Source of the DNA: Verrucomicrobiales bacterium
Lineage (GTDB): Bacteria > Verrucomicrobiota > Verrucomicrobiia > Limisphaerales > UBA9464
Assembly: GCA_016793645.1 (NCBI GenBank)
Contig: JAEUHD010000086.1
Coordinates: 31,397 to 95,396, forward strand
Direction: 5' to 3'
DNA length: 64,000 bases
Position numbers and translations under genes: made by a program. The notes beneath the pieces were generated by a model that saw only the letters and a list, made by a program, of their open reading frames with translations, was not told the DNA's origin and searched no databases. Positions 11,416 through 31,103 of this stretch are shown here, in pieces; the stretch's first letter is position 1, and every line of letters starts with the position of its first letter.

Positions 11416-12260
11416 ACGGAAGCCCCATTCCCACCAACCCCGGGCCTGAACCCCGGAAACGGATCCTGCACCCGGACCGCGTCTTCCTGCTGTCGTTCTC
11501 GATTCTGGGGGGAAGCTACCTGTTGCTGCTGCTGTCCACGCTGGTCGCCGACCTTGCCTACACCTCCCCGGGGCATTTGTGGCGGGCGCTTCAAAGTCCG
11601 GAAATCCGGTATGCCATCCGCCTGAGCCTCCTGAGCTGCACCCTGACGGCGCTGCTGTCGTTGTGGGTCGCGGTGCCCATTGGGTATCTCATGGCCCGAA
11701 TCCGATTTCCCGGGAAGGGCCTCGCCGATGTGCTGCTCGACATTCCCATCGTGCTCCCGCCCCTGGTGATCGGGCTCAGTCTGCTCATCCTGTTCCAAAC
11801 GCCGCCCGGGCGCGCCGTCGAGCGATGGATCCCGGTCACCTACGCAATTCCCAGCGTGATCCTGGCCCAGTTCATGGTTGCCTGCGCGTTCGCCGTCCGA
11901 ACCCTCCGGGCGACCTTCGAGCAGATCAGTCCGCGACACGAACAGGTCGCACTCACCCTCGGCTGTACCCGCAGCCAGGCGTTCTGGATGGTCGTTCTCC
12001 CGGAGGCGCGCCGCGGAGTCCTGACGGCGGGAACCCTCGCCTGGGCCCGCGCGCTCGGCGAATTTGGTCCCATCCTGATCTTCTCGGGCGCCACGCGGAT
12101 GAAGACCGAAGTGCTGTCCACGACGGTCTTCCTCGAACTGAGTGTCGGAAATCTTGAGGCCGCGGTCGCCGTCTCGCTGCTCATGGTGGCCGCGGCCGCC
12201 GTGGTGCTCCTCCTCATCCGGACCCAGGGACTCGAAAGCACCCTCGGTCGCCCGCTGTGA
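11412..12260 (+). CDS. modB: ABC transporter permease, ModB/CysT type
   Basis: Six predicted TM segments and an EAA-like loop (LGCTRSQAFWMVVLPEARRGVLTAG). The start is the ATG overlapping the upstream TGA. Confidence 0.8.
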   Translation: MNGSPIPTNPGPEPRKRILHPDRVFLLSFSILGGSYLLLLLSTLVADLAYTSPGHLWRALQSPEIRYAIRLSLLSCTLTALLSLWVAVPIGYLMARIRFPGKGLADVLLDIPIVLPPLVIGLSLLILFQTPPGRAVERWIPVTYAIPSVILAQFMVACAFAVRTLRATFEQISPRHEQVALTLGCTRSQAFWMVVLPEARRGVLTAGTLAWARALGEFGPILIFSGATRMKTEVLSTTVFLELSVGNLEAAVAVSLLMVAAAAVVLLLIRTQGLESTLGRPL

Positions 12261-12261
12261 A

Positions 12262-12918
12262 ATGATCGCCCTCGAACAGGTCACCGTGGGCATCGGCGGA
12301 TTCGAACTCCGCGACGTTTCCTTCACGATTCCGGACGGGGGCTACGGCGTCCTGATGGGACGCACCGGATCCGGCAAGACGACCCTGTTGGAGGCCATCT
12401 GCGGACTTCGCCCCATCCGCTCGGGCATCGTCCGCCTCCAGGGCCGCGACGTGACCCGCGAGTCCCCGGCGAAACGCGGCGTGGGATTCGTTCCCCAGGA
12501 GGGTGCCTTGTTCGGACACCTCACCGTGCGCGAGCATTTGGAGTTCGCCCTGGTGGTCCGCCACTGGAGCCCCGCTGCCATTCGCACCCGGGTGGAGGAG
12601 CTATCCGCCTGGCTCGGCCTCAACCCACTGCTGCACCGGAAGCCCGCGGGACTTAGCGGCGGGGAAACCCAAAGGGTGGCCCTGGGCAGGGCACTCTCCT
12701 TCCAACCGCAGGTGCTGTGCCTCGACGAACCGCTGAGCGCGCTGGATGACGAGAGCCGGGCTGAAATCTGTTCGGTACTGGAAACCATCCACCAACGAAC
12801 CCGCGTCACGGTCCTGCACATCACCCATAATCGCACCGAAGCCGAACGGCTGGCGGGCACCCTCCTTCGGATCCATGACGGAACCCTACAACTCCAGGTA
12901 CCGCCCGCGTCCCGCTGA
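12262..12918 (+). CDS. modC: ABC transporter ATP-binding protein (short ModC-like, no TOBE/Mop domain)
   Basis: Walker A GRTGSGKTT, signature LSGGETQRV and Walker B LCLDEPLSALD. At 218 aa it lacks the C-terminal regulatory domain of E. coli-type ModC. Confidence 0.85.
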   Translation: MIALEQVTVGIGGFELRDVSFTIPDGGYGVLMGRTGSGKTTLLEAICGLRPIRSGIVRLQGRDVTRESPAKRGVGFVPQEGALFGHLTVREHLEFALVVRHWSPAAIRTRVEELSAWLGLNPLLHRKPAGLSGGETQRVALGRALSFQPQVLCLDEPLSALDDESRAEICSVLETIHQRTRVTVLHITHNRTEAERLAGTLLRIHDGTLQLQVPPASR

Positions 12919-16671: not shown

Positions 16672-18116
16672 GATCCCGCACTGCATCCCTGCTCCGCCGC
16701 GTGACCCTCGGGTGGGTGATCACCGTGGCGGTCGTCCGCGCATCGGCTTCGGATTGGCCGACCTACCGGGCGGACAATTCCCGGAGCGGGGTCAGCCCGG
16801 ATGACGTCCCTGGCGTGGTCTCCGAAGCCTGGGTCTGGCGCTCCCGCCAACCGCCCCGTCCCGCGTGGCAGGGCGAAGCCAAATGGGACGGGTGGAACAA
16901 GGTCTTTGACCTGAAGGCCCGTCAAACCTTCGACCGCGCCTTTCACGCCGTGGTGTCGGGAGACCGGGTCTATTTCGGGTCCTCGGCCGACGACAAGATC
17001 TACTGCCTGGACGCCGTGACCGGCAGGGAGGTGTGGACCGTCTTCACCGAAGGCCCCGTCCGCCTCGCCCCTACAATCGCCAATGGCCGCGTGTACGTAG
17101 GCTCCGACGACGGCCACGTGTACTGCCTCGATGCCCAGGACGGTCATTCGCTCTGGAACGTGCGGGCCGCACCGTCCGACCGGCGCATCCCGGGCAACGG
17201 CCGCCTCATTTCCGCCTGGCCCGTGCGTACGTCGGTCGTGGTCGCCGATGGCATCGCCTACACCACCGCAGGGATGTTTCCATCGGAGGGAGTCCATCTC
17301 CTCGCACTGGACGCCGCCACCGGCGCCGAGCGGTGGCGTCAAATCCAGACCGATCTTCCGGCACAGGGATACCTCCTCGCGTCCCCCACCCGGCTTTATA
17401 TTCCTGCGGGACGCGATAATCCCGTCGTGTGCGACCGGGCCACCGGAAAACGGATCCGGGTCGTGGACGGAAACGGCGGCACCTATGCCCTGCTCGCGGG
17501 TGGGGATTCCCTGGTGTTCGGCCCTGGAAAAACCGGGCAACTCAACGCGCTCGACGAAGGACCTGCGGACCAACTCGCCACCTTCCAGGGAAACCAAATG
17601 ATCGTCGCCGGTGATCGGTCTTACCTACACTCGGACACGGAACTCAGCGCATTGGACCGGGGACGTTACCTGCAGTTGGCCCGCGAGCGAAAGGCCATCA
17701 GCCGGAGGCAGGGGGAAATCCAAAAGGCGCTGCGGAAACTCGACGCCGCCGGGGGCGGTGACGCCGAGAAGGCAAAACTCAAATCGGAACTCGCGGAATT
17801 GGGTCCGAAACTGGATGCCCGCACCCAGTCCATGGAGGAATGCCTTGCGTGGAAGATTCCCTGCCGCTGGCCGCTGACACTGGTGCTGGCGGGAACGACG
17901 CTGGCCGCCGGCGGCCAGAATGAAGTGGCCGGATTCCAGGCGTCGGATGGAAAGGTCCTGTGGACCCGTCCGGTCACTGGGGCCGCCTATGGAATCGCCG
18001 CAGCGGGAGGTGCCCTTTTCGTCAGCACCGACAGCGGCTCAATCCACTGTTTCCGGGGCTCCAGCCAGCGCGCCTCCCTCAACGCCCCCGCTCCCGCGGA
18101 ATCCCGCACCCCATGA
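16668..18116 (+). CDS. exported PQQ-like (BamB-type) beta-propeller repeat protein with a coiled-coil insertion
   Basis: Signal peptide, WPTYRADNSRSG and repeated GRVYVGSDDGHVYCLDAQDG-type blades. A ~60-aa charged helical insert is present (RERKAISRRQGEIQKALRKLD...KLKSELAELG). Confidence 0.75.
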   Translation: MRSRTASLLRRVTLGWVITVAVVRASASDWPTYRADNSRSGVSPDDVPGVVSEAWVWRSRQPPRPAWQGEAKWDGWNKVFDLKARQTFDRAFHAVVSGDRVYFGSSADDKIYCLDAVTGREVWTVFTEGPVRLAPTIANGRVYVGSDDGHVYCLDAQDGHSLWNVRAAPSDRRIPGNGRLISAWPVRTSVVVADGIAYTTAGMFPSEGVHLLALDAATGAERWRQIQTDLPAQGYLLASPTRLYIPAGRDNPVVCDRATGKRIRVVDGNGGTYALLAGGDSLVFGPGKTGQLNALDEGPADQLATFQGNQMIVAGDRSYLHSDTELSALDRGRYLQLARERKAISRRQGEIQKALRKLDAAGGGDAEKAKLKSELAELGPKLDARTQSMEECLAWKIPCRWPLTLVLAGTTLAAGGQNEVAGFQASDGKVLWTRPVTGAAYGIAAAGGALFVSTDSGSIHCFRGSSQRASLNAPAPAESRTP

Positions 18117-21067
18117 TGTCATCCCGTTCTCCGAATTCCCAAGGGTTCTTCCGGTCACGGCCGATCGTGGGCCGCATTCTTTGGGTCGCAGCCCTGTGGT
18201 TCTCCGCAACCACCTCGCCGTACCTGCTCCACGCGGCGCCGGAGACCGGCCTCCTCGCACACTGGCGGCTGAGTCCTGAATGGAAACAGGGCACCGACCT
18301 CAAGGCGGTCACCGGGCCTTCCCTCTCCTCAATTGGGGTCCGAAGTTTCACCTCCGATCCCAAACCCGGGCAACTGGAGTTCAACCCCGGGGATTCCGGT
18401 CTCTTGGTGGCAGAAAATCCGGACAAGGATCTTCTGCCCCGAAAGGCGATGAGCCTGGAATCCTGGGTCCGCGTTGACGAACCGGAGGCACCCGGGGGAA
18501 TCCTCAGTTACTGCGACGACCGGGAGGGAATGTTCCGGGGATGGCTGCTGGGAGTCCGGGACGGACGATTCTTCTTCGCCCTCGACGCCGGGGACACCGC
18601 CGGGTCCGCCGGTCTCAAGTCACCCGAAACCGCGGAACGCCGTCGATGGTACCACCTTGCCGCCACCTTCGACGGCCGGGTGAAGCAACTCTACGTCAAT
18701 GGTGTGCCCGTTGCCGCCTCGACCAACGGCCTCGCGGAGATCCGGTTTCCCGATGCGGCACCGCTCCTGATCGGAAGTGTCCGGTCGGGCGCGGGCAGCC
18801 ACACGCTGCAGGGAGCGCTGCACGAAGTACTCGTCTACCGACGGGCCCTGGCCTCGGACGAAATCCTCGAACGATTTCAGCGCCGCAAGGCGGAGTTTCC
18901 GGCCCCCGCCCCCGCACCGCCCCCGCTTCGGCTTTCCTTCGGTCCCTTCGCAGAACTGAAGCGGCCAGGCTCCGCCCGGATTGCGTGGGAAGCAAATCCC
19001 GGACAACAAAGCCGCATCGTCGTGGAGGATGGGCCGGACGTGCTGATCCAGGATGCGGCCCCGAATTCCACCGGACCCCGGACCACCATTCTGACGCACC
19101 TCCAACCCAACCGGGAGTACCATTACCGGGTCGTCGGTCCCACGGACGCCGGCACGACCGCGCAAAGCCACCGGTACCTGCTGGACACCAGCTTCGACTA
19201 TTCGCCCCTTCCCATTCCAGAGGTCGGCCAGAACCCGTCGAACGGACAGGATCAGATCCGCGAGGCGGCCGCCCGGATCCTCCAAAGATCCGGGGTCCGG
19301 GATGGTTACTGTGTCCTTTTGGGAGCCGGAGATCCGCGACTCGCACTCGAATTGGTTCGTCAAAGCCAACTGCAGGTGGTTGTCCTCGACCACAACGAGA
19401 ACCGGATCGCCGCCGCGCGGACCCTCCTCGACCAGGGAGGCGCCTACGGCGTCCGAGCCAGCGTCCACCGGATCGCGTCCGGACCGCTTCCCTACGGAGA
19501 CTATTTTGCGAACCTGGTGGTCTCAGGTTCCCCCCTGACCTCAAGCCGTCCCCCCGAAACGGCGGCGGGAGAAGTGTTCCGCATCCTGCGACCGGAGGGT
19601 GGGACGCTCCTGTTGGGTGAATTGAATGCCTCCACCCGTGCCGAATGGGAGCGCTGGCACCTGATGGAACCCAAGGCCAACGACATCCAACCGACCGGGG
19701 AGGGAGCCTGGATGCAGTTTCGAAGGCCCCGCCTCGCGGGCGCCGGCGAATGGAGCCATCAGTACGGAAGTGCGGACAACACCGCGACCAGCATGGACGA
19801 TCTCGTGGGCGGCGATCTCCAGGTCGCGTGGTGGGGGGATCCGGGACCGCGACCCATGCCGGATCGCGGCAATCGCAATCCCGCGCCCCTGAGCGTCCAG
19901 GGACGCCTGTTCATCCAGGGCAACCGGATCCTGTTCGGTCTGGACGCCTACAACGGAACCATCCTGTGGACGCTGTCGGCGCCCGAGGTGCGTCGGGCGA
20001 ATGTGACCCGCGACTGCAGCAACATGGCGGCCGCCGGGAATCATCTGTACGTCGTCCAGGGGCGTTGGCTGCTGAATTTCGACGGGCAATCCGGAACCGT
20101 CCTCCGCCGGCACCCTGCAGACGGGGATGGATCCACGGGTGCCTTTGATTGGGGTTATGTGGCGGCGATCGGCGACCGCGTCATCGGCAGCCGCCAGAAG
20201 CAGGATGCCGCCTATCTGGGTGACGACGGGGAATGGTATGAGGACTTCGACGACCAGCAGACCAGCCGGGTCACAAGTGATCGGCTGTTCTCCCTCGATC
20301 CCGAGACCGGAGCCCGCCCGTGGACCTACGCCGGTGGTGTGATCCTGAATTCCACCCTGACGATTGCCGACGGGATGATTCTGTTCCTCGAAAGCCGCAA
20401 CCCCAAGGCCCTCGCCGCCGCAGGCAGCCGCCTCACCCATGAGCAATTGACCGACCAATACCTCGTCGCCCTCGACCTCAAGACCGGACAAAAGCTTTGG
20501 GAAAAGGGGCACGACTTCAGCGACTGCCAGTACATGACCTATCTGGTCTACAATCAGGGCACCGCCATCGTGACCGGGACCGATCGTGAGAAGAAGTTTC
20601 ACACCTTCGCGTTCAGCGCCCCGGCGCCCGGGCTTTCCGGCGGCGATGATCTGGAAAAATCAATTCCAGGGCGGCTGCTGTGGTCGGACACCCACAAGGA
20701 AGACAAGGGACACCACAGCGGGCATCTTCAGCACCCGCTGGTCCTCGACCAGGTGTTCTACTCCGACCAGAGGGCCTTCGACCTCCGGTCCGGAAAGCTG
20801 TTGCGTATGGACCTTCCGGAACGACGCGGCTGCGGCATCATGTCCGCCTCCCACCGGGCAGTGTTCTTCCGGCATCACTATCAGGGCGTCTGGGATCTGG
20901 CGACCAACCGTCGTTCCCAGTTCGAAGGCATCCGAACCGGCTGCTGGCTGGGCATGATCCCGGCCGGCGGCATGCTGCTGGCCCCGGAGAGCAGCGCCGG
21001 ATGCTCCTGCACCCACGCGATCCAGATCTCCGTTGCCTACGCTCCCAAACCGGCCCCTCCGCGCTAA
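18113..21067 (+). CDS. large exported multidomain protein: LamG-like + FN3/PAP-N-like + class-I methyltransferase-fold + PQQ-like beta-propeller
   Basis: 984 aa from MMSSRSPN (ATGA overlap). LamG_3-type end LHEVLVYRRALASDEI. FN3-like ARIAWEAN...LQPNREYHYRV. Methyltransferase-like CVLLGAGDPRLALELV...VVVLDHNE...VFRILRPEGGTLLLG. Then propeller blades (GRLFIQGNRILFGLDAYNGTILW and others). Confidence 0.7.
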   Translation: MMSSRSPNSQGFFRSRPIVGRILWVAALWFSATTSPYLLHAAPETGLLAHWRLSPEWKQGTDLKAVTGPSLSSIGVRSFTSDPKPGQLEFNPGDSGLLVAENPDKDLLPRKAMSLESWVRVDEPEAPGGILSYCDDREGMFRGWLLGVRDGRFFFALDAGDTAGSAGLKSPETAERRRWYHLAATFDGRVKQLYVNGVPVAASTNGLAEIRFPDAAPLLIGSVRSGAGSHTLQGALHEVLVYRRALASDEILERFQRRKAEFPAPAPAPPPLRLSFGPFAELKRPGSARIAWEANPGQQSRIVVEDGPDVLIQDAAPNSTGPRTTILTHLQPNREYHYRVVGPTDAGTTAQSHRYLLDTSFDYSPLPIPEVGQNPSNGQDQIREAAARILQRSGVRDGYCVLLGAGDPRLALELVRQSQLQVVVLDHNENRIAAARTLLDQGGAYGVRASVHRIASGPLPYGDYFANLVVSGSPLTSSRPPETAAGEVFRILRPEGGTLLLGELNASTRAEWERWHLMEPKANDIQPTGEGAWMQFRRPRLAGAGEWSHQYGSADNTATSMDDLVGGDLQVAWWGDPGPRPMPDRGNRNPAPLSVQGRLFIQGNRILFGLDAYNGTILWTLSAPEVRRANVTRDCSNMAAAGNHLYVVQGRWLLNFDGQSGTVLRRHPADGDGSTGAFDWGYVAAIGDRVIGSRQKQDAAYLGDDGEWYEDFDDQQTSRVTSDRLFSLDPETGARPWTYAGGVILNSTLTIADGMILFLESRNPKALAAAGSRLTHEQLTDQYLVALDLKTGQKLWEKGHDFSDCQYMTYLVYNQGTAIVTGTDREKKFHTFAFSAPAPGLSGGDDLEKSIPGRLLWSDTHKEDKGHHSGHLQHPLVLDQVFYSDQRAFDLRSGKLLRMDLPERRGCGIMSASHRAVFFRHHYQGVWDLATNRRSQFEGIRTGCWLGMIPAGGMLLAPESSAGCSCTHAIQISVAYAPKPAPPR

Positions 21068-21091
21068 GCCAATCGTCCCTTTCCCTTTTCC

Positions 21092-22345
21092 ATGCCCCCC
21101 TGCTCCACCACCTCGTTCACCGTCAATGGACGGACCTACACCCCCCCTGCACGTCCCGTAGCCGTCATCTGCCTCGACGGCTCCGCCGATGAATATCTGG
21201 ATGCCGCCCTGGCCCGGGGACGCATGCCCCACCTCGCGCGCATCAGTGTTTCGGGATGGCGGGGACTCGCCCGGGGCGCCATGCCGAGCTTCACCAACGT
21301 CAACAACAGCTCCATCGTCACGGGGGTGCCTCCGTCCGTGCATGGCATCGGCGGAAACTTCTTTTTCGACACGGCCAGCGGACAGGAGGTCATGATGAAC
21401 TCCGCCGCATTCCTCAGGGCCGAAACCCTGTTTCCCGCCGCGCAACGGGCCGGACGCAGGGTCGCCGTGGTCACGGCGAAGGAGAAGCTGCGGGATATCT
21501 TTGCCCACGGACTGATCCGCGAGGGGGGCATCGCCTTTTCCTCCGAACGCGCGGGGCAGGCCGCTCCCGCCACCCACGGTGTGGGTGATGTGGAATCCCT
21601 CGTGGGTCCCACGCCTCCCATCTACAGCGGGGAAGCCTCCATCTATGTGCTTCGCGCGGGTGTTCGCCTGCTCGCGGCGGGACGGGCCGATTTTCTGTAC
21701 CTGTCCACGACCGACTTCATGCAGCACAAGTTCGGACCGGAGGCGCCGGAAGCCCTCGACTTTTACGCCGCCATTGACGCCGAACTGGGTGCCCTCCTCG
21801 CCGCCGGTGCCGTGGTGGGATTGACCGCCGACCATGGGATGAATGCGAAACAACTCCCGGATGGCTCCCCAAACGTCATTTTCCTGGAAACGGAATTGTC
21901 CGAGCGCTTCGGTCCCGGTTTTCGTGTGATTCTTCCCATCACCGATCCCTACGTGGTGCACCATGGAGCGCTGGGTTCCTTCGCCCAGGTTCACCTCCCG
22001 GCGGAAACCGGCGCATCCCTTGAAATCGCGGAATGGCTGCGATCACGCTCGGGGATCACCGAGGTGCTGACCCGCGATACGGCAGCGCGACTGATGGAAC
22101 TGCCGCCGGACCGCATGGGGGACCTGGTCGTCTGCTCCGCGCGCAATGTCGTCCTGGGCCGGACTCCGGCGTATCACGACCTCAAGGCCATCGAAGGCGG
22201 GCTTCGGTCCCACGGAGGTCGCTACGAGGAAATGGTCCCGTTTGTGTTGAGCGAACCGCTGACGCCCGCCTATCGATCCCGGGCGCAGGGAGATCCTCGG
22301 AACTTCGATATCTTCGAGTTCACGGTGAACGGGACCCATGCCTGA
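21092..22345 (+). CDS. phnA: phosphonoacetate hydrolase (alkaline-phosphatase superfamily)
   Basis: 417 aa. PSFTNVNNSSIVTGVPPSVHGIGGNFFFD, YLSTTDFMQHK, TADHGMNAK and LPITDPYVVHHGALGS match, from memory, the conserved blocks of characterised PhnA enzymes. Confidence 0.7.
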   Translation: MPPCSTTSFTVNGRTYTPPARPVAVICLDGSADEYLDAALARGRMPHLARISVSGWRGLARGAMPSFTNVNNSSIVTGVPPSVHGIGGNFFFDTASGQEVMMNSAAFLRAETLFPAAQRAGRRVAVVTAKEKLRDIFAHGLIREGGIAFSSERAGQAAPATHGVGDVESLVGPTPPIYSGEASIYVLRAGVRLLAAGRADFLYLSTTDFMQHKFGPEAPEALDFYAAIDAELGALLAAGAVVGLTADHGMNAKQLPDGSPNVIFLETELSERFGPGFRVILPITDPYVVHHGALGSFAQVHLPAETGASLEIAEWLRSRSGITEVLTRDTAARLMELPPDRMGDLVVCSARNVVLGRTPAYHDLKAIEGGLRSHGGRYEEMVPFVLSEPLTPAYRSRAQGDPRNFDIFEFTVNGTHA

Positions 22346-22383
22346 TCGGGTGGCATCCGGCTTGGATCCATCCGGCACCTGAG

Positions 22384-23772
22384 TCATCCGGGTCCCGCCT
22401 CCGTGGAACCAGGGGTTCGCCCCTCTCGCAGGCCCAGCCGCAGGACAAATTCAGTGCCCCTGGGTCCGGTCTCCTCCAGTTCCAGTGTGGCACCGAGACT
22501 CCGCGCCAACTGCTGGCTGAGGGCCAATCCCAGCCCGGTCCCACCCTCCTTCTCCGTAACCACGGGCGTGAACAAGCGCTCCCGGACGGACTCCGGCAGC
22601 CCTCCCCCGTCATCCCGCACTCGAAACTCCACGGTTTCCGGAGTCTCGGTCGCCCGAATCCGAACCACCCCGCCGGATGGCGAGGCCTGGACGGCATTTC
22701 GGACGAGGTTTTCCAGGATGAGGAGGGAGACATTGGCATCCCGGTTGGGAATTGGACGCCCGGCCTTCACGGATGATTCCAGGCGGACTGAGTTCTCCCG
22801 GGAGAACGACGCCTCACGCTGCACCAGATGGTCGAGCAGTTCCTGTGGACTAATCTCGTATCGGATTAGTCCGGAGTCCTCCCTTAGAACCCCCGTCACG
22901 GCATCAATCATTGCCTGCATGCGACGCGTCGAATCCGCCGCCTCGGACCATTCGACCCCGGACTCTCGGGAAGGCCCCTTGGCTCCGGTGGACACAAACT
23001 GGCGCAACCCGGCGAGGGGATTCTTGAGGCCATGGATCAGGTGCGACGTCACCGCACCCACCGCCGCCGTTTTGGCGGCAAGCGTCAGCTCCCGATTGAC
23101 ACGGATGAGCCGTCGCTGCGTCTCCGCCAGTTGATGAAACACGAAGGCCAAGGCGACGGTCATGGCTCCTCCGGCCAGGAGAAATGCCAGTCGGGACTGC
23201 CGGCGGAGGGTGGCATCCAGGGATTCGTACTCCGCCTTCAAACCGGACGCGTCGAGGAGAAACTTGGCGTAGGCTTCGGGGACCCCGTCCGCCGACCGAA
23301 TGGGCACGATGACCTCCAGCATCGGCTTGCGGCCGGCCAAGCCGGTTCCCGACAGGTCCGGAGCCGCATCGGAATCCAGTTCCTCGGCGGTGCCGTATCG
23401 ACTGACCGGAGCGCCCTTGCGGACCTCCTCGATCTGCCGGGAGGAAAGATCCGAATCCCCTCCCAACAGCGACAGGGGCGCGTTGAAGGTCCCGTTGGTG
23501 TCGTAGAGGTTCAGCGATTGGACCCCCGGCAACTCCGGAAGGACGGCGGTTTCGAGCAATGCCACCAGATCATCCCCAAACGGTCCACCCCGCGAAAGTC
23601 GGAGCTTCTCGTTCAGGAGGCCCGAGACCAGCGACGCTTCCCGTCGAGCCAGTTGGTCGCGCAACTGAACTCGCAGCGAGTTCCGGGTGAAGTCCACCGC
23701 CAATGCCAGCAACACCAGCGCGAGCAGGATGCCCAAAGCCGGAAGCCAACGCGATGACAGCAGCGGTCTCAA
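22384..23772 (-). CDS. sensor histidine kinase (two TM helices, periplasmic sensor domain)
   Basis: N-terminal TM, a ~170-aa periplasmic region and a second TM. H-box SHLIHGLKNPLAGL, N-box ENLVRNAVQA and G-box GGTGLGLALS. Confidence 0.88.
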   Translation of the reverse strand: MRPLLSSRWLPALGILLALVLLALAVDFTRNSLRVQLRDQLARREASLVSGLLNEKLRLSRGGPFGDDLVALLETAVLPELPGVQSLNLYDTNGTFNAPLSLLGGDSDLSSRQIEEVRKGAPVSRYGTAEELDSDAAPDLSGTGLAGRKPMLEVIVPIRSADGVPEAYAKFLLDASGLKAEYESLDATLRRQSRLAFLLAGGAMTVALAFVFHQLAETQRRLIRVNRELTLAAKTAAVGAVTSHLIHGLKNPLAGLRQFVSTGAKGPSRESGVEWSEAADSTRRMQAMIDAVTGVLREDSGLIRYEISPQELLDHLVQREASFSRENSVRLESSVKAGRPIPNRDANVSLLILENLVRNAVQASPSGGVVRIRATETPETVEFRVRDDGGGLPESVRERLFTPVVTEKEGGTGLGLALSQQLARSLGATLELEETGPRGTEFVLRLGLREGRTPGSTEAGPG

Positions 23773-23787
23773 CCAGAGACCCCGGGC

Positions 23788-24954
23788 TCAGAACTCGAAC
23801 TCGAATCCAGCCGCCGAGGTCGTGGCACCGTAATTGTCCTGGGGCGTATTGGCGATGGAAGTTTCCCAGGAGAACCGGACAAATCCCATCACGTGGTCCG
23901 TGATTTCATAGGTTGCCTGAAGTCCCAGGGAGTATTCCTGTCGGTCCCGAAGCGTCGATTCCTCCGGAGCACTTGTCTGTTCGGTGTACTGGTACCAACC
24001 CGCCGCGCCCTCCGCGGACAACACCCAGCGTCCAAACGATCCCTGGATTCCGGCACCCACCCGGAATCGATTGTAGTTATAGTACCCCGTGCCGTTGTCC
24101 CTCGCCGTGGTAAACCCGGCCGAAAGCGTGGTACGCCACTGTTTTTCCCGATCCCAATACTGCTGCCACTTCCCGTTCACCGTATTCAATTGCAGGTGCT
24201 CGACCACAAGGGTCACCGGATTGATGACCTCCCCCCCCGGGGTCAGCAGGGGCGTCGCCGTGGAATACACCCGCTCCGTCCAGGAATACCCGAGGGACGC
24301 CGTGGAGCCATTGCCCAGACGGCGGGTGAGGAGCAACTGGGGACCGGCCTCGAGGAATCCGTCCGGCGCCACGGACAAACCCTGGTAGGTCAACGGCACC
24401 TCGATGCCCGCAAGCCAGTTGGTTCCCACGCGTCCGGAGAAGTTCGGACGAAAAATCACCGTATTTCCGCGAACCTGCTCGGGGCCCTTTGGGTAGGCCC
24501 CCAGTTCGGACAGGTCGACGACCTGATTGGCGTACATCCAGATCAGAGTGCCGCCGGCATTCCACCAAGACGGCGATTCGTGCTCGTAGCTGAACTGGGA
24601 GAGGAAATTCTGCTGGCCAGGAACGTCCTCATCACTGAAGTAACGGCGATCATCCCCGGTGAGGAAGATGCTGGCGGTGTCCCCGTCCGTCGGCAGTCGG
24701 AAAAACAGGAGATCCCCTCCATACTCGAAGAATGCCGCCGGTTTCCGAGCATCCGACTGGAACGCGAGGGATGGATTGCTGTTGTAGCCCCCGCTGGTCC
24801 GTAGCGAGAGGGACGAGTCCCAGAGCACGAACGGCGAAGGCTCTGCCATCGGTTCAGGAAACTGCACCTGACCTCCATGCAGGTGCGTGTACAGCACGGT
24901 GGACAGGGCGGCCTGCACGAACACCGAGGAACAGCTCGTGGGACGTCGAATCAA
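23788..24954 (-). CDS. outer-membrane beta-barrel protein (uncharacterised)
   Basis: Alternating amphipathic beta-strand pattern, rich in aromatic residues and Gly. The C-terminus ...AAGFEFEF ends in Phe, typical of OMPs. Confidence 0.6.
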   Translation of the reverse strand: MIRRPTSCSSVFVQAALSTVLYTHLHGGQVQFPEPMAEPSPFVLWDSSLSLRTSGGYNSNPSLAFQSDARKPAAFFEYGGDLLFFRLPTDGDTASIFLTGDDRRYFSDEDVPGQQNFLSQFSYEHESPSWWNAGGTLIWMYANQVVDLSELGAYPKGPEQVRGNTVIFRPNFSGRVGTNWLAGIEVPLTYQGLSVAPDGFLEAGPQLLLTRRLGNGSTASLGYSWTERVYSTATPLLTPGGEVINPVTLVVEHLQLNTVNGKWQQYWDREKQWRTTLSAGFTTARDNGTGYYNYNRFRVGAGIQGSFGRWVLSAEGAAGWYQYTEQTSAPEESTLRDRQEYSLGLQATYEITDHVMGFVRFSWETSIANTPQDNYGATTSAAGFEFEF

Positions 24955-25045
24955 AACAGTAGGATCCGCGGCAACCTTGAAGAGGCCCCCCGTCCCCTGT
25001 CAAACAAACCGGCTACCCCCCCGAGGGCCAACCCCCACCACCCGG

Positions 25046-25504
25046 CTACTTCCTCGGACGATTCCGAACGCCACTCTCTCCCAGCCCTTCCTCAAACGGC
25101 CGCGAGGAACTCAGCGTCCTCTGAACCTCCTTGATCCGCTCCTTGAGCTCCGCCCGGATCTGCCGGGTCTGCTGAAGAAACTCTGCACGATTTGCCTTCA
25201 TCTGTTCCTTCAGCTTTTCCCGCTCACTCTTGGTGGCACCCTCGGCGCGCTTCCAAACCTCCTTCTGGCGCTCGACGTAGCTCTGCGCCCGGGTTCGAAA
25301 GTCCTCCGCCAATCCCTTTACAGACTCCGGCAGCTCCAAGTTGGAGGGAATCTTGAGATCGGGGACATCCACCCCGGAAACCGGCTCCGTGACCGCAGGC
25401 CTGACTTCATGGCGATCCCCCACTCCATCGGCCGCCTCCAGCGCCCGGGCCGTCAGCAACCCCAACAACAGGACTGCAACCTTCAAGTGCGTGATCGGCT
25501 TCAT
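25046..25504 (-). CDS. small exported helical protein, Spy/CpxP/ZraP-like by composition
   Basis: Signal peptide MKPITHLKVAVLLLGLLTARALEA, then a K/E/R/Q-rich helical region (EREKLKEQMKANRAEFLQQTRQIRAELKERIKEVQ). I chose the start at 25504 over 25564 because of the signal peptide. Confidence 0.55.
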   Translation of the reverse strand: MKPITHLKVAVLLLGLLTARALEAADGVGDRHEVRPAVTEPVSGVDVPDLKIPSNLELPESVKGLAEDFRTRAQSYVERQKEVWKRAEGATKSEREKLKEQMKANRAEFLQQTRQIRAELKERIKEVQRTLSSSRPFEEGLGESGVRNRPRK

Positions 25505-25576
25505 GGTTTCCAACTCACTCCCCTCGCCTGGACGATAGGTATCAGGACGACTGAGATCTGCCACTTAAGATTCAAA

Positions 25577-25591
25577 GCTAGCGAGATGCCA
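25577..25591 (-). promoter_or_regulatory. candidate sigma-54 (-24/-12) promoter
   Basis: The minus strand reads TGGCATCTCGCTAGC. The GG and GC dinucleotides have canonical spacing (TGGCA-N9-GC); the -12 element is TAGC rather than TTGC. It lies ~70 nt upstream of the ATG at 25504 and directly downstream of a sigma-54 activator gene. Confidence 0.5.
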
Positions 25592-25700
25592 AACCGAATC
25601 CTGACATCCAAATATTGCAAAACTCTCTAAATTAGGATGATAGAAACTAAAATAGGTAAAGGCACATACGAAACAAATCTCCGGATTATGTCGAAGGCCC

Positions 25701-27212
25701 TCACTCTTTGGACGTTTGGGGGTGTTCACCCAATTCACTGGACGTCGGAGCGTCACCCGACTTGCCCGAATCCTTCCATCCCCCCAGTCGATACCGGAGA
25801 TAATCACGGGACACCCCCAACTTCCGGGCGGCCTTGGAAACATTTCCACGCGTTTCCGCGAGGGCATGCTCAATCAATCGCAAAATGGCCTGTTCGAGGG
25901 AAAAACCCGACTCGGGAAATCGAAACTCCGGGTTGAACCAATCATCCTTGGATGCCGATGTCGCGGGCACTGTCCCCACGAAACCCGCGGCAGATGAGCC
26001 TGCCGTGGAAGTGGTTCCACCAGCGCCAAGCAACTGATCCAGGTTGAGGGCATCCCCGTCCTCGAAGACCAATGCTCGTTCCAGTTCATGGGCGAGTTCC
26101 CGGACATTTCCGGGCCATCCATATCCGAGGACCCGCCGACGCCCCAAGTCGGATAGCGGCCGGACAGGAATCCGATGTCGACGAACCAACCGGGCGATGA
26201 GGGCGTCCGCCAACCGCAATACGTCATCCCCCCGCTCCCGGAGTGGGGGAAGCACCACCCGAAACAAATCCAATCGATGGAACAAATCCTCACGAAACCG
26301 CCCCTCACGGACCAGATCCCTGAGTTCACGGTTCACGGCGGCGACCACACGAACCTCGACGGGAATGTCCCGGTTCCCTCCCACCCGACGCACCCGTCGG
26401 TCCTCCAAGACCGTCAGCAATTTGGCCTGCAGCGGGAGGCTGAGGGAAGCGAGTTCGTCAAGAAACAGCGTGCCTCCGTTGGCCGCCTCAAACAGTCCCA
26501 TCCGGGCACTTCTCGCATCGGTGAACGCACCCTTTTCGTGCCCAAACAGCTCGGACTCCGCGAGATTCTCGGGAATGGCGGCACAATTGGCCTCCACCAG
26601 CGGGGCGGATGCCCGGGGACCTTCATTGTGAATCCATCGCGCAATGGTCGTCTTTCCCGTCCCTGTCTCTCCCTGGATCAAAACCGGGGGCGGCGTCGAT
26701 CCCGCGCCATGGAGCCGATGATCGGCGGACAGGATCCGCTGCAGCTGCGTCTCCAGTCCCGCCAGGGCCGAGCCAAAGAAAAAACCCGCCTCCGGTGAAT
26801 CCGAGCGCCGGTGCTCAGCAACGCGGACGGCCTGTCGCTGCTGGCGCGCCCTGGCCAGGGTCAAGGCCAGGGCCTCCGGCTCAAAGGGCTTGGTCAGGTA
26901 GTCCAGTGCCCCCAACTTCATGGCGGCCACCGCCCCGGCCACGCCGCCCATCGCGGTCATGACAATGACGCCCGCCGTGGTGCCAAAGACCCCGTCCCGG
27001 AGGAGGTCCGTCCCCGTCCCATCCGGCAAATTCACGTCGAGAAGCACGTAATCGAAACTCAGCTCCCCGGCCAACTGCCGGGCCGCCCTCAAGGAATCCG
27101 CCTGCGACACGTCGGCACCCATGCCCTCCAGTGTCGCGGCCAAATGCCGCCTCAGCAGCGGTTCGTCATCGACCACCAGAATGTTGAATCCCGACAAAGC
27201 TCCTGACCGCAT
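25701..27212 (-). CDS. sigma-54-dependent response regulator (NtrC/ZraR family: receiver + AAA+ + Fis-type HTH)
   Basis: Receiver ILVVDDEPLLR...DYVLLDVNLPDG, Walker A GETGTGKT, the GAFTGA-type loop ESELFGHEKGAFTDA, and a C-terminal HTH GNVSKAARKLGVSRDYLRYR. Confidence 0.92.
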   Translation of the reverse strand: MRSGALSGFNILVVDDEPLLRRHLAATLEGMGADVSQADSLRAARQLAGELSFDYVLLDVNLPDGTGTDLLRDGVFGTTAGVIVMTAMGGVAGAVAAMKLGALDYLTKPFEPEALALTLARARQQRQAVRVAEHRRSDSPEAGFFFGSALAGLETQLQRILSADHRLHGAGSTPPPVLIQGETGTGKTTIARWIHNEGPRASAPLVEANCAAIPENLAESELFGHEKGAFTDARSARMGLFEAANGGTLFLDELASLSLPLQAKLLTVLEDRRVRRVGGNRDIPVEVRVVAAVNRELRDLVREGRFREDLFHRLDLFRVVLPPLRERGDDVLRLADALIARLVRRHRIPVRPLSDLGRRRVLGYGWPGNVRELAHELERALVFEDGDALNLDQLLGAGGTTSTAGSSAAGFVGTVPATSASKDDWFNPEFRFPESGFSLEQAILRLIEHALAETRGNVSKAARKLGVSRDYLRYRLGGWKDSGKSGDAPTSSELGEHPQTSKE

Positions 27213-27417
27213 CCGGCGAGGATGACGACCGGAACGCCCCGTGGCCAGCCGGATGCGTTCGAGGTTCCCGGGAGAATGTCACTCCACGATTCGGTATTCG
27301 CTTGCCTGTCGCCTCCCGCCCGCCTCAACTGACAGGGTTATCCGCACGCGTCCGGTGGCGCACCGGACCCGGGTCCGGAAGCCATCAAGGGACGCGGTGG
27401 GAACGCTTTGGATCAAC

Positions 27418-29457
27418 ATGAACCACGGATCTGCCACCGCATCGACCCCTTCGACGCCGACCCAATTTCCCTATCCGGGAATCGCCACCAGCACCGATGG
27501 CGCGGGAGCGGTCACCTGGGTGGAAACGAACATCACCCAGGGAGCCTGCGCCTACCCGATCACGTCGTCCACGACCATGGGCACCGGGTACCAGACGGAG
27601 GTCTCGAATGGGAAGCAGAACCTCTGGGGCGACACCATCACCTTCGTCCAACCGGAGTCGGAACATTCCGCTGCGTCCACCTGCGAGGGATTCGCTCTCG
27701 CCGGCGGCAGGGTTACCAACTTCACGTCCGGTCAGGGCTTGGTCCTGATGAAGGAAGTCCTGTACACCATTTCCGGAAAGCGCCTTCCCGTCGTGTTCCA
27801 CATCGGAGCCCGGGCACTGACCAGTCATTCGCTGAACGTCCATTGCGGACACGATGACGTGATGAGTGTGGCCGATTGCGGTTGGGGCATCCTGTTCGGA
27901 AGGAACGCTCAGGAAGCCGGCGACTTGGCGCTGATCTGCCGCCGCGCGGCGGAAGCCAGTGACACGCCGTTCATGAACGTGCAGGACGGCTTCCTGACGA
28001 CGCACACCATCGAGAACGTCCGACTCCCGGAGACCGCGTTCATGAAGGAGTACATGGGGGATCCCAACCAGAAGCTCCGCTGTCTGTTTGATCCCCGCAA
28101 CGCCCTGATGTCCGGCGTCGTTCAAAATCAGGACTCCTACATGAAGGGCAAGATCGCCCAGCGGGGGTACTACGATCGCGTCCCGGCCGCCGTCGAGGAG
28201 GCCATGGAGGTCTTCTACCAGAACACCGGCCGCCGCTACCGGATGGTGGACACCTACCTGATGGACGATGCCGAATTCGCCCTCGTTGGAATGGGGGGGA
28301 TGATGGAAACCGCCCAGGCTGCCGTGGATTATCTGCGGTCGAAGTATGGAGTGAAGGTGGGTGTTGTTCATGTCACCTGCTTCGCTCCGTTCCCGGCAAC
28401 CCAGTTGGTGGCGGCACTCAAGAATGTCCGCGCCTTCACCGTCATCGAGCGAATGGACAACCCCCTCGCGCAGTCCAATCCGCTCGTCCAGGCGATCAAG
28501 GCCTCCTTCGCCGACGCCTTGATTGGCCTTCACTACGGATCCAGCGGGCAGACTTCCTACCCCGAGGTGCACCGTCTTCCCCGGATCTACTCCTGCTCCG
28601 CAGGCCTCGGCTCCCGGGACATCCGCGCGGGTCACTTCATCGCGATCACCCGCAACATGCAGTCCGAACAGCCCCGGGAGTTCTCGGTGGTCGGCATCAA
28701 GCATGAGCTCGCGCTGCCGGACGCGGAAGATCCCGATATCCGTCCGGAAGGAGCGTTCTCCATGCGCGGACATTCGGTCGGCGGATTCGGATCCGTCACC
28801 ACCAACAAGCTGATCGCCTCCTTCGTCGGGGAGTTGTTCAATCTCTACGTCCAGGCCTACCCGAAGTACGGCTCCGAGAAGAAGGGTCTCCCCACGACCT
28901 ATTACCTGACGGTGGCTCATGATCACGTCCGCTCCCACAGCGAACTCGATCACGTGGAATTCATCCCGCTCAACGACGTCAATGCGTTCAACCTGGGGAA
29001 TCCCCTCGCGGGAATCGCCCCCGAGGGCAGCGTGTTCATCCAGAGCCCGCATACCAACCCCGAACAGGTTTGGGCGGAGATCCCGGAGTTCGGACGCAAG
29101 ATCATCCGGACCAAGAAGCTCCGGGTCTACTACCTGGACACCGTGAAGATCGCGCGGGAGATCGCGACCGACCCCGACCTGCAGCAGCGCATGCAGGGCG
29201 TCGTCCTGGTCGGCATTTTCATCAAGGTCACCCCGTTTGCGGCTCGCTCGGGAATGAACGAGGAAACCGTTCTGGGTGCCGTGGAAAAGTACATCCGGAA
29301 ATACTTCGGCAAGCGCGGCGAACACGTCGTCCAGGAGAACCTCGCCTGTGTCAAACAGGGACTGAAGGACGTCCGCGAAGTCCCCTCGGAGATCATTACC
29401 TCCACGAACCAACCCCGCGAGATGGTTCGCGGTGAGACCCTGGTCTTTGCCAAGTAA
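27418..29457 (+). CDS. pyruvate:ferredoxin-type 2-oxoacid oxidoreductase, large subunit (PFOR domains I-III)
   Basis: 679 aa from MNHGSATAS. YPITSSTTM, ESEHSAASTCEGFALAGGRVTNFTSGQGLVLM and GHDDVMSVADCGWGILF fit PFOR domain I, and the C-terminal part is gamma-like. Confidence 0.85.
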   Translation: MNHGSATASTPSTPTQFPYPGIATSTDGAGAVTWVETNITQGACAYPITSSTTMGTGYQTEVSNGKQNLWGDTITFVQPESEHSAASTCEGFALAGGRVTNFTSGQGLVLMKEVLYTISGKRLPVVFHIGARALTSHSLNVHCGHDDVMSVADCGWGILFGRNAQEAGDLALICRRAAEASDTPFMNVQDGFLTTHTIENVRLPETAFMKEYMGDPNQKLRCLFDPRNALMSGVVQNQDSYMKGKIAQRGYYDRVPAAVEEAMEVFYQNTGRRYRMVDTYLMDDAEFALVGMGGMMETAQAAVDYLRSKYGVKVGVVHVTCFAPFPATQLVAALKNVRAFTVIERMDNPLAQSNPLVQAIKASFADALIGLHYGSSGQTSYPEVHRLPRIYSCSAGLGSRDIRAGHFIAITRNMQSEQPREFSVVGIKHELALPDAEDPDIRPEGAFSMRGHSVGGFGSVTTNKLIASFVGELFNLYVQAYPKYGSEKKGLPTTYYLTVAHDHVRSHSELDHVEFIPLNDVNAFNLGNPLAGIAPEGSVFIQSPHTNPEQVWAEIPEFGRKIIRTKKLRVYYLDTVKIAREIATDPDLQQRMQGVVLVGIFIKVTPFAARSGMNEETVLGAVEKYIRKYFGKRGEHVVQENLACVKQGLKDVREVPSEIITSTNQPREMVRGETLVFAK

Positions 29458-29489
29458 CCCTTCGATCGCCCGCCTTAGCCACCCCTTTC

Positions 29490-31103
29490 ATGAGCAACGC
29501 CACCCTTGAGACCCCCGCCCCGGCCATGCCCCAGCGCCTGAACGTGCGGCCGGTCGGAGACGACGTCCTCAACGTCGCCGATTTCAATGAACGCATCGTG
29601 GGAGCCTACAACGACGGCTCCGCGGAAATGGGCCTTCCCGCCGACCTGTCCACGGCGAGGTCCCTGATCACTGCGGGTTCCGCCGTTCTGCGCGATTTCT
29701 CCTACATCGCGCCCGAGATTCCGCTGCTGAACTCCGACAACTGCGTGGCCTGCATGGCCTGCGTCACGGAATGCCCCGACACCGCCATCCTCGGCAAGGT
29801 GGTGCCCAAGGCGAAGCTCGAGGCGGAACTCGAAACCGTCGCGGATCCCGTGGAGCGCGAGCACTACCGAAAGCAGTTCGGCAAGACGACGAAGTTTTGG
29901 AACGTGTACGAAAAGAAGGGCCAGGAGCCCGGCTATTTCGGCATCTTCATCGACCCGACCAAGTGCAAGGGTTGCGCGGAATGCGTCGAGGCCTGCGGCG
30001 ATCACGGTGCGCTGGCCATGCTCAAGAAGGAGGGCAACGTCCTCCCCCGATTCCAAAAGACCTTCAATTTCTACCGCAAGCTTCCGGAGACTCCGAAGCA
30101 GTTCATCAACGAAAAGCTGCTCACGGACATGATGCTCGCGGACCGTTCGCTGCTGTACGTCGGCGGCGCGGGATCCTGCATGGGCTGCGGCGAAGGCACC
30201 GCCATCCGAATGATGCTGGCCGCCACCGGATTCGTGTACGGCAAGGAAAACATCGGCATCGTCAATTCCACGGGATGCTCGACGGTGTACGCCTCGACCT
30301 ATCCGTACAACCCCTACCTCGTCCCCTGGTCCAATTCCCTCTTCGAGAACGGCCCGACGTACGCCATGGGCGTCCGCGCGCGCTGGGATCAGATGGGATG
30401 GAAGGACAAGAAACTTTGGGTCTTCGGCGGCGACGGAGCGATGCTCGACATTGGTTTCCAGGCGCTGAGCCGGATGCTGGCGTCGGGAATGAACATCAAA
30501 GTCCTGATCCTCGATACCCAGGTGTACTCCAACACCGGCGGCCAAAGTTCGACGGCCACCTTCATGGGCCAAAACACCAAGTTCTCGGTTCACGGCAAGG
30601 CCATCCCCGGAAAGACGGAGCGTCGGAAGGAGATCGCCCAGATCGCCATGATGCATCCGAACACGTTCGTTGCCCAGACGAGCTGCGCGATGACCAACCA
30701 CTTCTACAAGTCGATCATGGCGGCCAACGAGTACGACGGCCCCGCCATTGTCAGCGTGTACACCACCTGCCAACCCGAACACGGGGTCGGCGACAACATG
30801 GCGATGCAGCAGTCCAAGCTCGCCGTGGACACCCGTTCGTTCCCGGTGCTCATGTACGATCCCCGCAAGGGCGAGAAGATCAGCGAGCGGCTCAGTCTCC
30901 AGGGGAACCCGGCCACGACCGAAGACTTCTACGTCGAGCCCAAAACCGGCGAAGTGTATGACTTCGTCATGTTCGCCCGGAGCGAGGGTCGCTTCTCCAA
31001 GCACTTCGACAAGGACGGCAAGCCCAGCGCCACGATTCTTGCCGCACGCCAGGAGCGCCTCGAAAACTGGCACCTGCTTCAGGAACTCGCGGGCATCCGC
31101 TAG
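29490..31103 (+). CDS. pyruvate:ferredoxin-type 2-oxoacid oxidoreductase, ferredoxin + TPP-binding subunit (PFOR domains V-VI)
   Basis: Two 4Fe-4S motifs (CVACMACVTECP, CKGCAECVEACG) and the TPP-binding block GGDGAMLDIGFQALS...DTQVYSNTGGQ. Confidence 0.88.
   Translation: MSNATLETPAPAMPQRLNVRPVGDDVLNVADFNERIVGAYNDGSAEMGLPADLSTARSLITAGSAVLRDFSYIAPEIPLLNSDNCVACMACVTECPDTAILGKVVPKAKLEAELETVADPVEREHYRKQFGKTTKFWNVYEKKGQEPGYFGIFIDPTKCKGCAECVEACGDHGALAMLKKEGNVLPRFQKTFNFYRKLPETPKQFINEKLLTDMMLADRSLLYVGGAGSCMGCGEGTAIRMMLAATGFVYGKENIGIVNSTGCSTVYASTYPYNPYLVPWSNSLFENGPTYAMGVRARWDQMGWKDKKLWVFGGDGAMLDIGFQALSRMLASGMNIKVLILDTQVYSNTGGQSSTATFMGQNTKFSVHGKAIPGKTERRKEIAQIAMMHPNTFVAQTSCAMTNHFYKSIMAANEYDGPAIVSVYTTCQPEHGVGDNMAMQQSKLAVDTRSFPVLMYDPRKGEKISERLSLQGNPATTEDFYVEPKTGEVYDFVMFARSEGRFSKHFDKDGKPSATILAARQERLENWHLLQELAGIR

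Follow-up and report, generated by a model that had tools for sequence, protein, structure and literature searches.

The 64,000-nucleotide (nt) stretch analysed here, called the window below, comes from a Verrucomicrobiales bacterium (GenBank assembly GCA_016793645.1, contig JAEUHD010000086.1, positions 31,397 to 95,396) and carries a compact gene cluster on its minus strand at 22384-27212. The cluster has five elements, namely the gene of an NtrC-family activator, a predicted sigma-54 promoter, the gene of a small secreted protein (hereafter the small gene), the gene of an outer-membrane beta-barrel and the gene of a sensor histidine kinase. We read it as a cell-envelope module that is complete in itself, a sigma-54 two-component system under positive autoregulation, and we put the probability of this reading at about 0.55. 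Comparison with orthologous loci shows the predicted cis-regulatory architecture and the operon membership on which the reading is built.

In each of the 16 related loci, as far as the available DNA reaches, the order regulator, small gene, barrel gene and kinase gene is kept. These loci were taken from Verrucomicrobiota metagenome-assembled genomes (MAGs) and metagenome contigs, using the DNA around close and then progressively more distant relatives. The full order can be followed in L001, L004, L005, L008, L009, L012, L014 and L015, and the partial contigs L002, L003, L006, L007, L010, L011, L017 and L018 are consistent with it. Identity to the window proteins reaches 93% at most. At its lowest the regulator still shows 58%, the kinase 37-39%, the small protein about 30% and the barrel about 25%, with the order intact. 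The genes upstream vary among loci (pyruvate:ferredoxin oxidoreductase, inositol phosphatase, HAD hydrolase or ThuA), and so do those downstream (phosphodiesterase, Methyltransf_4/FIST or a DUF6242-like gene). Since the order is constant while the flanks differ, the four genes travel as a unit, and the comparison shows a conserved, portable four-gene module. The co-directional gene order that a first-pass annotation of the window had described, with the coordinates of all its elements, is confirmed. The small gene precedes the barrel gene at every locus examined. At a further locus, L016 (L016:3973-7045), these two genes occur with no adjacent regulator or kinase, which makes them the tightest pair of the module; the genome of L016 must have its two-component pair at another site. 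Searches of the literature turned up no account of the four-gene module.

The regulator gene and the small gene are separated by 196 nt. In a four-way alignment of this spacer the sole conserved island was TTGGCAY-N5-C-NN-GCT, in which GG and GC are spaced by exactly 10 nt. The window copy, TTGGCATCTCGCTAGCTT, occupies 25592-25575 on the minus strand, with the -24 GG at 25590-25589 and the -12 GC at 25578-25577, and it predicts a transcription start near 25565, about 60 nt ahead of the ATG of the small gene. The -24/-12 element was found in all loci examined, the surrounding DNA being otherwise diverged, and the remote loci carry the canonical form TGGCAC-N5-TTGCA (TGGCACGCGAGTTGCA in L011 and TGGCACCGTGCTTGCA in L014). 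We then scored the window with a weight matrix trained on 11 orthologous sites, a set from which the window itself and its 93%-identical relative L008 were excluded. The site at 25592 (minus strand) ranked first in the 64-kb window on both strands, with 20.1 bits compared with 14.8 bits for the next site. Because it is the sole conserved island, is present in all loci and has the top rank, the element is more than a chance match, and the orthologue comparison shows that a predicted sigma-54 promoter lies in front of the small gene, as the first-pass annotation had suggested. A plain search for TGGC-N8-TGCW missed this promoter because its -12 element reads AGCT.

Upstream of the promoter lies a second conserved cis element, which the first-pass annotation had missed. 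This is a 16-bp palindrome with the consensus TGGGG-N6-CCCCA, and it is probably the enhancer, or upstream activating sequence. The window palindrome TGGGTGAACACCCCCA (TGGGT-GAACAC-CCCCA) occupies 25732-25717, within the final codons of the regulator gene, and its start is 142 bp ahead of the -24 GG. Measured from the -24 GG, the palindrome is found at -142 to -146 in 10 loci, at -137 in L018, at -122 in L009 and at -101/-102 in L014 and L016. Weaker second copies occur near -95 to -103 in L012, L015 and L018 and near -135 in L014. Two loci are irregular: L011 has one-mismatch copies at -84 and -110, and the best that L017 offers are copies with two and three mismatches, at -89 and -132. The main sites fall at -143, -122 or -102, in steps of about 21 bp, roughly two helical turns, and the half-sites lie 11 bp apart from centre to centre, a spacing that would fit a dimeric helix-turn-helix (HTH) of the Fis type. 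With at most one mismatch the palindrome is matched 5 times in the 64-kb window, and from this frequency a site within a 5-bp window would be expected by chance in about 4 of 10,000 loci. An enhancer search with exact inverted repeats had failed in most loci, and the palindrome was found by a scan in which mismatches were allowed.

The palindrome is conserved at the DNA level, since it is kept across reading frames and in a locus that has no regulator gene. In the clade of the window it is read as L/M-G-x-x-P-Q within an otherwise variable regulator tail. In L012 it spans the stop codon of the regulator in a different frame (G-G-E-stop). In L016 it stands in a divergent intergenic region without a regulator gene upstream, as a perfect copy at -101 together with a retained sigma-54 promoter (TGGCATCGAGTATGCA); a PQQ_2 beta-propeller gene follows the gene pair of that locus. 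A comparison of the window with L001, L004, L005, L012 and L014 indicates that the candidate binding site imposes C-terminal residues on the variable tail of the regulator. Elsewhere in the window, one-mismatch copies at 12400-12415 and 12482-12497 lie 82 bp apart within the gene of an ABC-transporter ATPase (12142-12918). As they have no sigma-54-like promoter close by, we judged these two copies to be chance occurrences.

The 124-nt spacer between palindrome and promoter (25593-25716) has a GC content of 38.7% compared with 63.6% for the window, which places it among the 0.09% most AT-rich 124-nt windows. It is probably a looping or bending region; a consensus site for integration host factor (IHF) was not found in it within 1 mismatch. 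We conclude from the aligned loci that candidate enhancer, spacer and predicted sigma-54 promoter make up one unit on which the neighbouring regulator acts. Control by this NtrC-type protein, also proposed by the first-pass annotation, thus holds on the comparative evidence of the conserved module, the promoter and the candidate enhancer.

The regulator (25701-27212, minus strand; 503 aa) gave Pfam matches to Response_reg (4.3e-21), Sigma54_activat (2.1e-61), AAA_lid_14 and HTH_8, a Fis-type HTH. It shows the receiver, the AAA+ domain with a GAFTGA-type loop and the C-terminal HTH that define the NtrC family. All 7 regulator orthologues examined have the Walker A motif GETGTGKT together with a GAFTDA loop, and regulator orthologues are 58-91% identical across loci. 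The GAFTDA variant of the loop has been judged compatible with activation (PMC4641369). By its predicted domains and motifs the regulator has all parts of an active enhancer-binding protein.

The small gene (25046-25504, minus strand) starts at ATG 25504 and encodes 152 aa. Every orthologue in the alignment keeps this ATG with its surroundings, and a longer reading from GTG 25564 would begin right at the predicted transcription start. The 152-aa reading is therefore correct, and the longer database versions (230 aa and 172 aa) have miscalled starts. Across the family the N-terminus has the signal-peptide pattern expected of an exported protein (basic n-region, hydrophobic core and A-x-A-like site), and since no Cys is present the protein is not a lipoprotein. 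A variable Pro-rich linker follows the signal peptide, then a conserved core of about 80 residues (LPxxVKxLxxxF...QKxLxKxLxGATxxERxxIREQLKxNRxxFLxxTxxLRxxIRxR..EL) and a C-terminal Gly/Arg tail. AlphaFold2, run with a 67-sequence alignment, predicted a two-helix hairpin (residues 60-134) with helices at 60-89 and 92-134, block-mean predicted local distance difference test (pLDDT) values of 91-96 over residues 61-130, and the GAT-x-x-ER motif at the turn. The mature protein has an isoelectric point of 9.5 and contains 1 His, 0 Cys and 1 Met. A word-indexed search gave 5 clusters of close relatives, all from metagenomes or Verrucomicrobiae MAGs, and an exhaustive profile search of 50%-identity clusters gave 291 representatives at E<=1e-3 and 48 at E<=1e-10. 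Among the matches listed, family members are 84-268 aa long, most of them 140-215 aa. Searches of Pfam, NCBIfam and the PDB found no relative of the small protein.

The first-pass annotation had likened the small protein to the CpxP/Spy/ZraP (LTxxQ) family and the whole locus to the ZraPSR system. The first of these comparisons found no support: for membership in the LTXXQ family, Pfam, NCBIfam, PDB profiles, hhalign and Foldseek were all negative. The small protein matched none of Pfam LTXXQ (PF07813), Metal_resist (PF13801) or a CpxP-like family at E<=10, and for 67 family relatives neither LTXXQ nor Metal_resist was among the 25 most-matched families at E<=1; in the positive control, true Spy proteins carried PF13801 and PF07813. 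Neither the 152-aa sequence nor the family consensus contains the LTXXQ motif, and only the turn motif G-A-T-x-x-E-R is conserved. Spy (3O39), CpxP and ZraP (3LAY) were the solved members used for comparison, and PDB sequence-profile searches with the small protein found none of the three. With hhalign, the 67-sequence profile gave probabilities of 4% for Spy, 1.3% for ZraP and 0.2% for CpxP, a comparison of limited sensitivity because the templates were single sequences. Two of the three templates were confirmed, Spy by 99% identity to E. coli Spy and ZraP by an E-value of 1.9e-51 to 3LAY. A search with Spy as query for a deep LTXXQ profile returned at least 120 matches; those listed were all enterobacterial Spy proteins of 87-99% identity, and because they lacked diversity no usable profile was obtained. 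Foldseek gave non-significant, generic helical hairpins (best E 0.81), and Spy, CpxP and ZraP were not among the 50 best. A His/Cys/Met-rich metal-binding tail like that of ZraP was not found in the small protein, which has the Gly/Arg-rich tail instead.

The two-component pair gave a similar result when compared with the NCBIfam equivalog models for ZraS and ZraR (NF007688, NF007689) at their curated cut-offs. The regulator scored 270.8 bits with ZraR (cut-off 760), 335 bits with AtoC and 326 bits with NtrC, every one below its cut-off. The kinase scored 79.7 bits with ZraS (cut-off 479) and higher with AtoS, yet also below the AtoS cut-off. Both proteins are therefore far from the ZraR and ZraS cut-offs, with AtoC/NtrC and AtoS scoring higher. 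What stands of the ZraPSR comparison is the logic, that is, a sigma-54 two-component pair with a small secreted helical protein; the family relationship is not supported, the profiles and equivalog scores being negative.

The barrel gene (23788-24954, minus strand; 388 aa) has a conserved TTG as the only possible start in its open reading frame. The AlphaFold2 model has 16 strands at a mean pLDDT of 73.9, and Foldseek matched it to the porin, FadL, OccK, CymA and AlgE barrels of the PDB at E of about 1e-8 and TM-scores of 0.4-0.5, a non-specific result. The N-termini are signal-peptide-like in all loci, and the C-terminus is FEF in the window and FEF, VEF or IEY across orthologues. A signal peptide, a closed antiparallel barrel in the model and a C-terminal aromatic beta-signal together agree with the earlier call of an outer-membrane beta-barrel, which the structure prediction thus bears out. 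In Pfam the protein matched BBP2_2 (PF10082) with 25.6 bits against a cut-off of 23.7, a partial match of residues 283-386 to profile positions 110-220 of 378, and OMP_b-brl with 22.9 bits; most barrel orthologues have no precomputed Pfam match. Close relatives form 9 clusters, and 3 reference genomes carry one. The most conserved stretches are GYNSNPSL, DDRRYF, HESPSWW and RDNGxGYYxYNRxR, at residues 55-63, 101-106, 125-131 and 285-298. In the model GYNSNPSL, HESPSWW and RDNGxGYYxYNRxR fall at least in part within predicted loops or turns, a placement that points to a loop with a function, a constriction or a partner-binding surface.

The kinase gene (22384-23772, minus strand; 462 aa) encodes a first transmembrane helix, a periplasmic domain of about 165 aa, a second transmembrane helix and then the dimerisation and histidine phosphotransfer domain and the catalytic domain, with hydropathy peaks in windows starting from residues 3-15 and 193-198. 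Pfam matched HATPase_c (1.5e-21) and, weakly, HisKA (19 bits), and no HAMP domain was seen. The periplasmic domain is conserved (28-65% identity) and gave no Pfam or PDB match.

Taken as a mechanism, the module would work as follows. With its 165-aa periplasmic domain the inner-membrane kinase would detect a cue from the periplasm or the outer membrane, and it would then phosphorylate the NtrC-type regulator. The phosphorylated regulator would bind TGGGG-N6-CCCCA within the 3'-terminal part of its own gene, some 143 bp ahead of the -24 element, loop across the AT-rich spacer and remodel sigma-54 RNA polymerase at TTGGCAT-N5-TAGCT. The resulting transcript would encode the small hairpin protein, the barrel and the kinase. 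Since the kinase would be on the induced transcript, induction would also raise the level of the sensor, giving positive feedback. The basic, amphipathic hairpin protein may be the periplasmic partner of the barrel, as a holdase, an adaptor or a plug, and it may feed back on the kinase like ZraP and CpxP. The output would be an inducible change of the outer envelope. The signal, the proteins that the small protein binds and the function of the module in the cell are inferred; a response to envelope stress and a signal or target in the outer membrane are plausible.

Comparison with characterised systems places the module more precisely. ZraPSR of E. coli and Salmonella is alike in that an enhancer-binding regulator and a periplasm-sensing kinase drive a small secreted helical protein through a sigma-54 promoter, and the kinase gene is also under sigma-54 control there (PMC4987338). 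The ZraPSR genes are divergent, whereas those of the module are co-directional, with regulator and kinase two genes apart and an obligatory outer-membrane barrel. The small protein also differs in having neither detectable LTXXQ homology nor a metal-binding tail, and the regulator and kinase are not orthologues of ZraR and ZraS. CpxP with CpxAR, and Spy, resemble the module in coupling a small, basic, all-helical periplasmic protein to a two-component system, and by analogy a feedback of the small protein on the kinase, as in CpxP, is conceivable. The Cpx targets use sigma-70 promoters, whereas a sigma-54 promoter is predicted here, and Spy and CpxP, which carry two LTXXQ motifs, are four-helix cradle dimers; our model is a simple two-helix hairpin with a GAT-x-x-ER turn. 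GlrK-QseG-GlrR (QseEGF) is a sigma-54-dependent two-component system with an envelope accessory gene between or beside the kinase and regulator genes, and sensing in the Rcs system involves an outer-membrane barrel. Both QseG and RcsF are lipoproteins. Compared by description only, the module differs from these systems in its Cys-less small protein and in a barrel that is itself a product of the regulated operon. Skp/OmpH (PF03938) is likewise a basic periplasmic helical hairpin and serves outer-membrane barrels. It differs in that PF03938 gave sub-threshold matches in 14 of the 67 family members (best E 0.0097), Skp ranked 49th in Foldseek (E 3.8), and the trimerising beta-strand body of Skp is not predicted in the small protein.

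The module may use one transcript or two. Barrel and kinase genes are 15 nt apart in the window and 3-24 nt apart in most orthologous loci, and because of this short gap they are taken as co-transcribed. The gap between small gene and barrel gene is consistently longer (91 nt in the window, 56-225 nt elsewhere). It contains, at 24974-25004 on the minus strand, a TTTGACA followed 18 nt on by (C/T)CAAGGT, which is invariant in 8 close loci (the window, L001, L004, L005 and L007-L010) and may be an internal promoter for basal expression of barrel and kinase. Barrel and kinase could then be made mainly from a promoter of their own, with the small gene as the sole sigma-54 target and two transcription units in all; a kinase behind an inducible promoter would, besides, need basal expression before induction. 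We consider this arrangement quite unlikely. The downstream hexamer matches TATAAT at 2 of 6 positions, a sigma-70 promoter scan of 22000-27600 found none, and the block is absent from remote loci despite their having the same gene order. Nor was any terminator-like or significant RNA structure found after the small gene; a terminator or other structure in the gap was rejected with a fold z-score of +0.9, an alifold consensus of -2 kcal/mol and unfavourable covariation.

Other readings concern what the module is for and where it came from. Sigma-54 two-component systems often control the uptake of carbon or nitrogen sources, and the cluster could be a substrate-inducible channel operon of the DctBD, AtoSC or TctDE-OpdH type, in which the kinase would sense a nutrient such as an organic acid, the regulator would induce a specific porin and the small protein would be an accessory of that channel. 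The barrel model is as close to substrate-specific channels (chitoporin, FadL, OccK/OprD and CymA) as to general porins, and AtoC and AtoS, although far below their cut-offs, are the best NCBIfam matches of regulator and kinase. We nevertheless regard this reading as unlikely, since none of the 16 loci, whose flanks vary, links the module to an inner-membrane transporter, a periplasmic binding protein or a catabolic enzyme, since the hairpin protein is quite unlike a solute-binding protein, and since Foldseek matches at TM-scores of 0.4-0.5 are generic for a barrel of this size. A true but diverged ZraPSR homologue, with the small protein as a remote chaperone of the LTXXQ superfamily and a repressor of the kinase, is highly improbable. 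ZraP is a periplasmic chaperone made from a ZraR-dependent sigma-54 promoter (PMC4987338), and the small protein is likewise predicted to be periplasmic, basic and helical, directly behind a sigma-54 promoter under an adjacent two-component pair. In addition, hhalign laid GAT-x-x-ER...NR on the first LTXXQ segment of Spy, NLTDAQKQQIREIMKGQRDQ, at the 4% probability given above. However, an ordinary helix-capping box can account for the T-x-x-E that opens helix 2 without homology, the LTXXQ and Metal_resist models, PDB profiles, hhalign, Foldseek and the motif and tail checks were all negative, and regulator and kinase fall far under the ZraR and ZraS cut-offs. The autoregulated envelope module may also be taken one step further: hairpin and 16-strand barrel may be an undescribed trans-envelope sensor/effector pair that informs the kinase of the state of the outer membrane. 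Verrucomicrobiota and related uncultured bacteria would then have an envelope-stress pathway of their own, like Rcs, Cpx or Zra in design with unrelated proteins, and with the enhancer in the coding sequence of its own activator. We offer this extension tentatively, as possible but rather doubtful.

Several points weigh against the autoregulated module itself. Enhancer-binding proteins often use two sites, and a single one is recognisable in the clade to which the window belongs; the palindrome might also fold into a short GC hairpin in the regulator mRNA. The -12 element of the window is AGCT and not the canonical TGCA, and rpoN is absent from the 64-kb window, so that sigma-54 is assumed for this genome. 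The TTTGACA block may give barrel and kinase their own promoter, and the three genes would then not strictly share one transcript. The 10 small-family relatives that we looked up are unnamed or annotated as 'hypothetical protein', and the helical-hairpin fold, with its best Foldseek E of 0.81, is uninformative on function.

The neighbourhood of the module was surveyed as well. Convergent with the kinase gene, the plus strand at 17960-22345 carries a Phosphodiest-family gene (21092-22345) and the gene of a 1035-aa LamG/methyltransferase/PQQ-repeat protein (17960-21067). Their synteny extends to L001, L004 and L008, not to L005, and they are probably unrelated neighbours. On the other side, pyruvate:ferredoxin oxidoreductase-like genes at 27241-31103 (plus strand) are divergent from the regulator gene. 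The GTG start listed for them at 27241 would leave an intergenic space of 28 nt and probably lies too far upstream; the promoter of the regulator gene itself must be in this region. In the remote loci L012 (5832-7970) and L014 (10327-12408) a co-directional gene of about 700 aa, with a faint DUF6242_C match only, follows the kinase gene; in that lineage the module may have this gene as its fifth member.

Other sigma-54 two-component systems with periplasmic accessory proteins are already known. The module is distinguished among them by its obligatory outer-membrane barrel, by a small-protein family without described relatives and by a candidate enhancer inside the activator coding sequence. 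It is well defined, conserved and directly testable, though not startling to a specialist. Its predicted control region is fully specified, from the enhancer palindrome through the AT-rich spacer to the sigma-54 promoter, and since the cis elements and the regulator are defined, the compact and portable module could be rebuilt in a heterologous host and its signal searched for directly. It also offers a clear case of a predicted transcription-factor site shaping the C-terminal codons of the factor's own gene. To our knowledge, pathways of envelope stress and remodelling are known almost entirely from Proteobacteria, and we know of almost nothing comparable for Verrucomicrobiota; the module includes two protein families without described function, the secreted hairpin with its 291 cluster representatives and its obligatory barrel partner.

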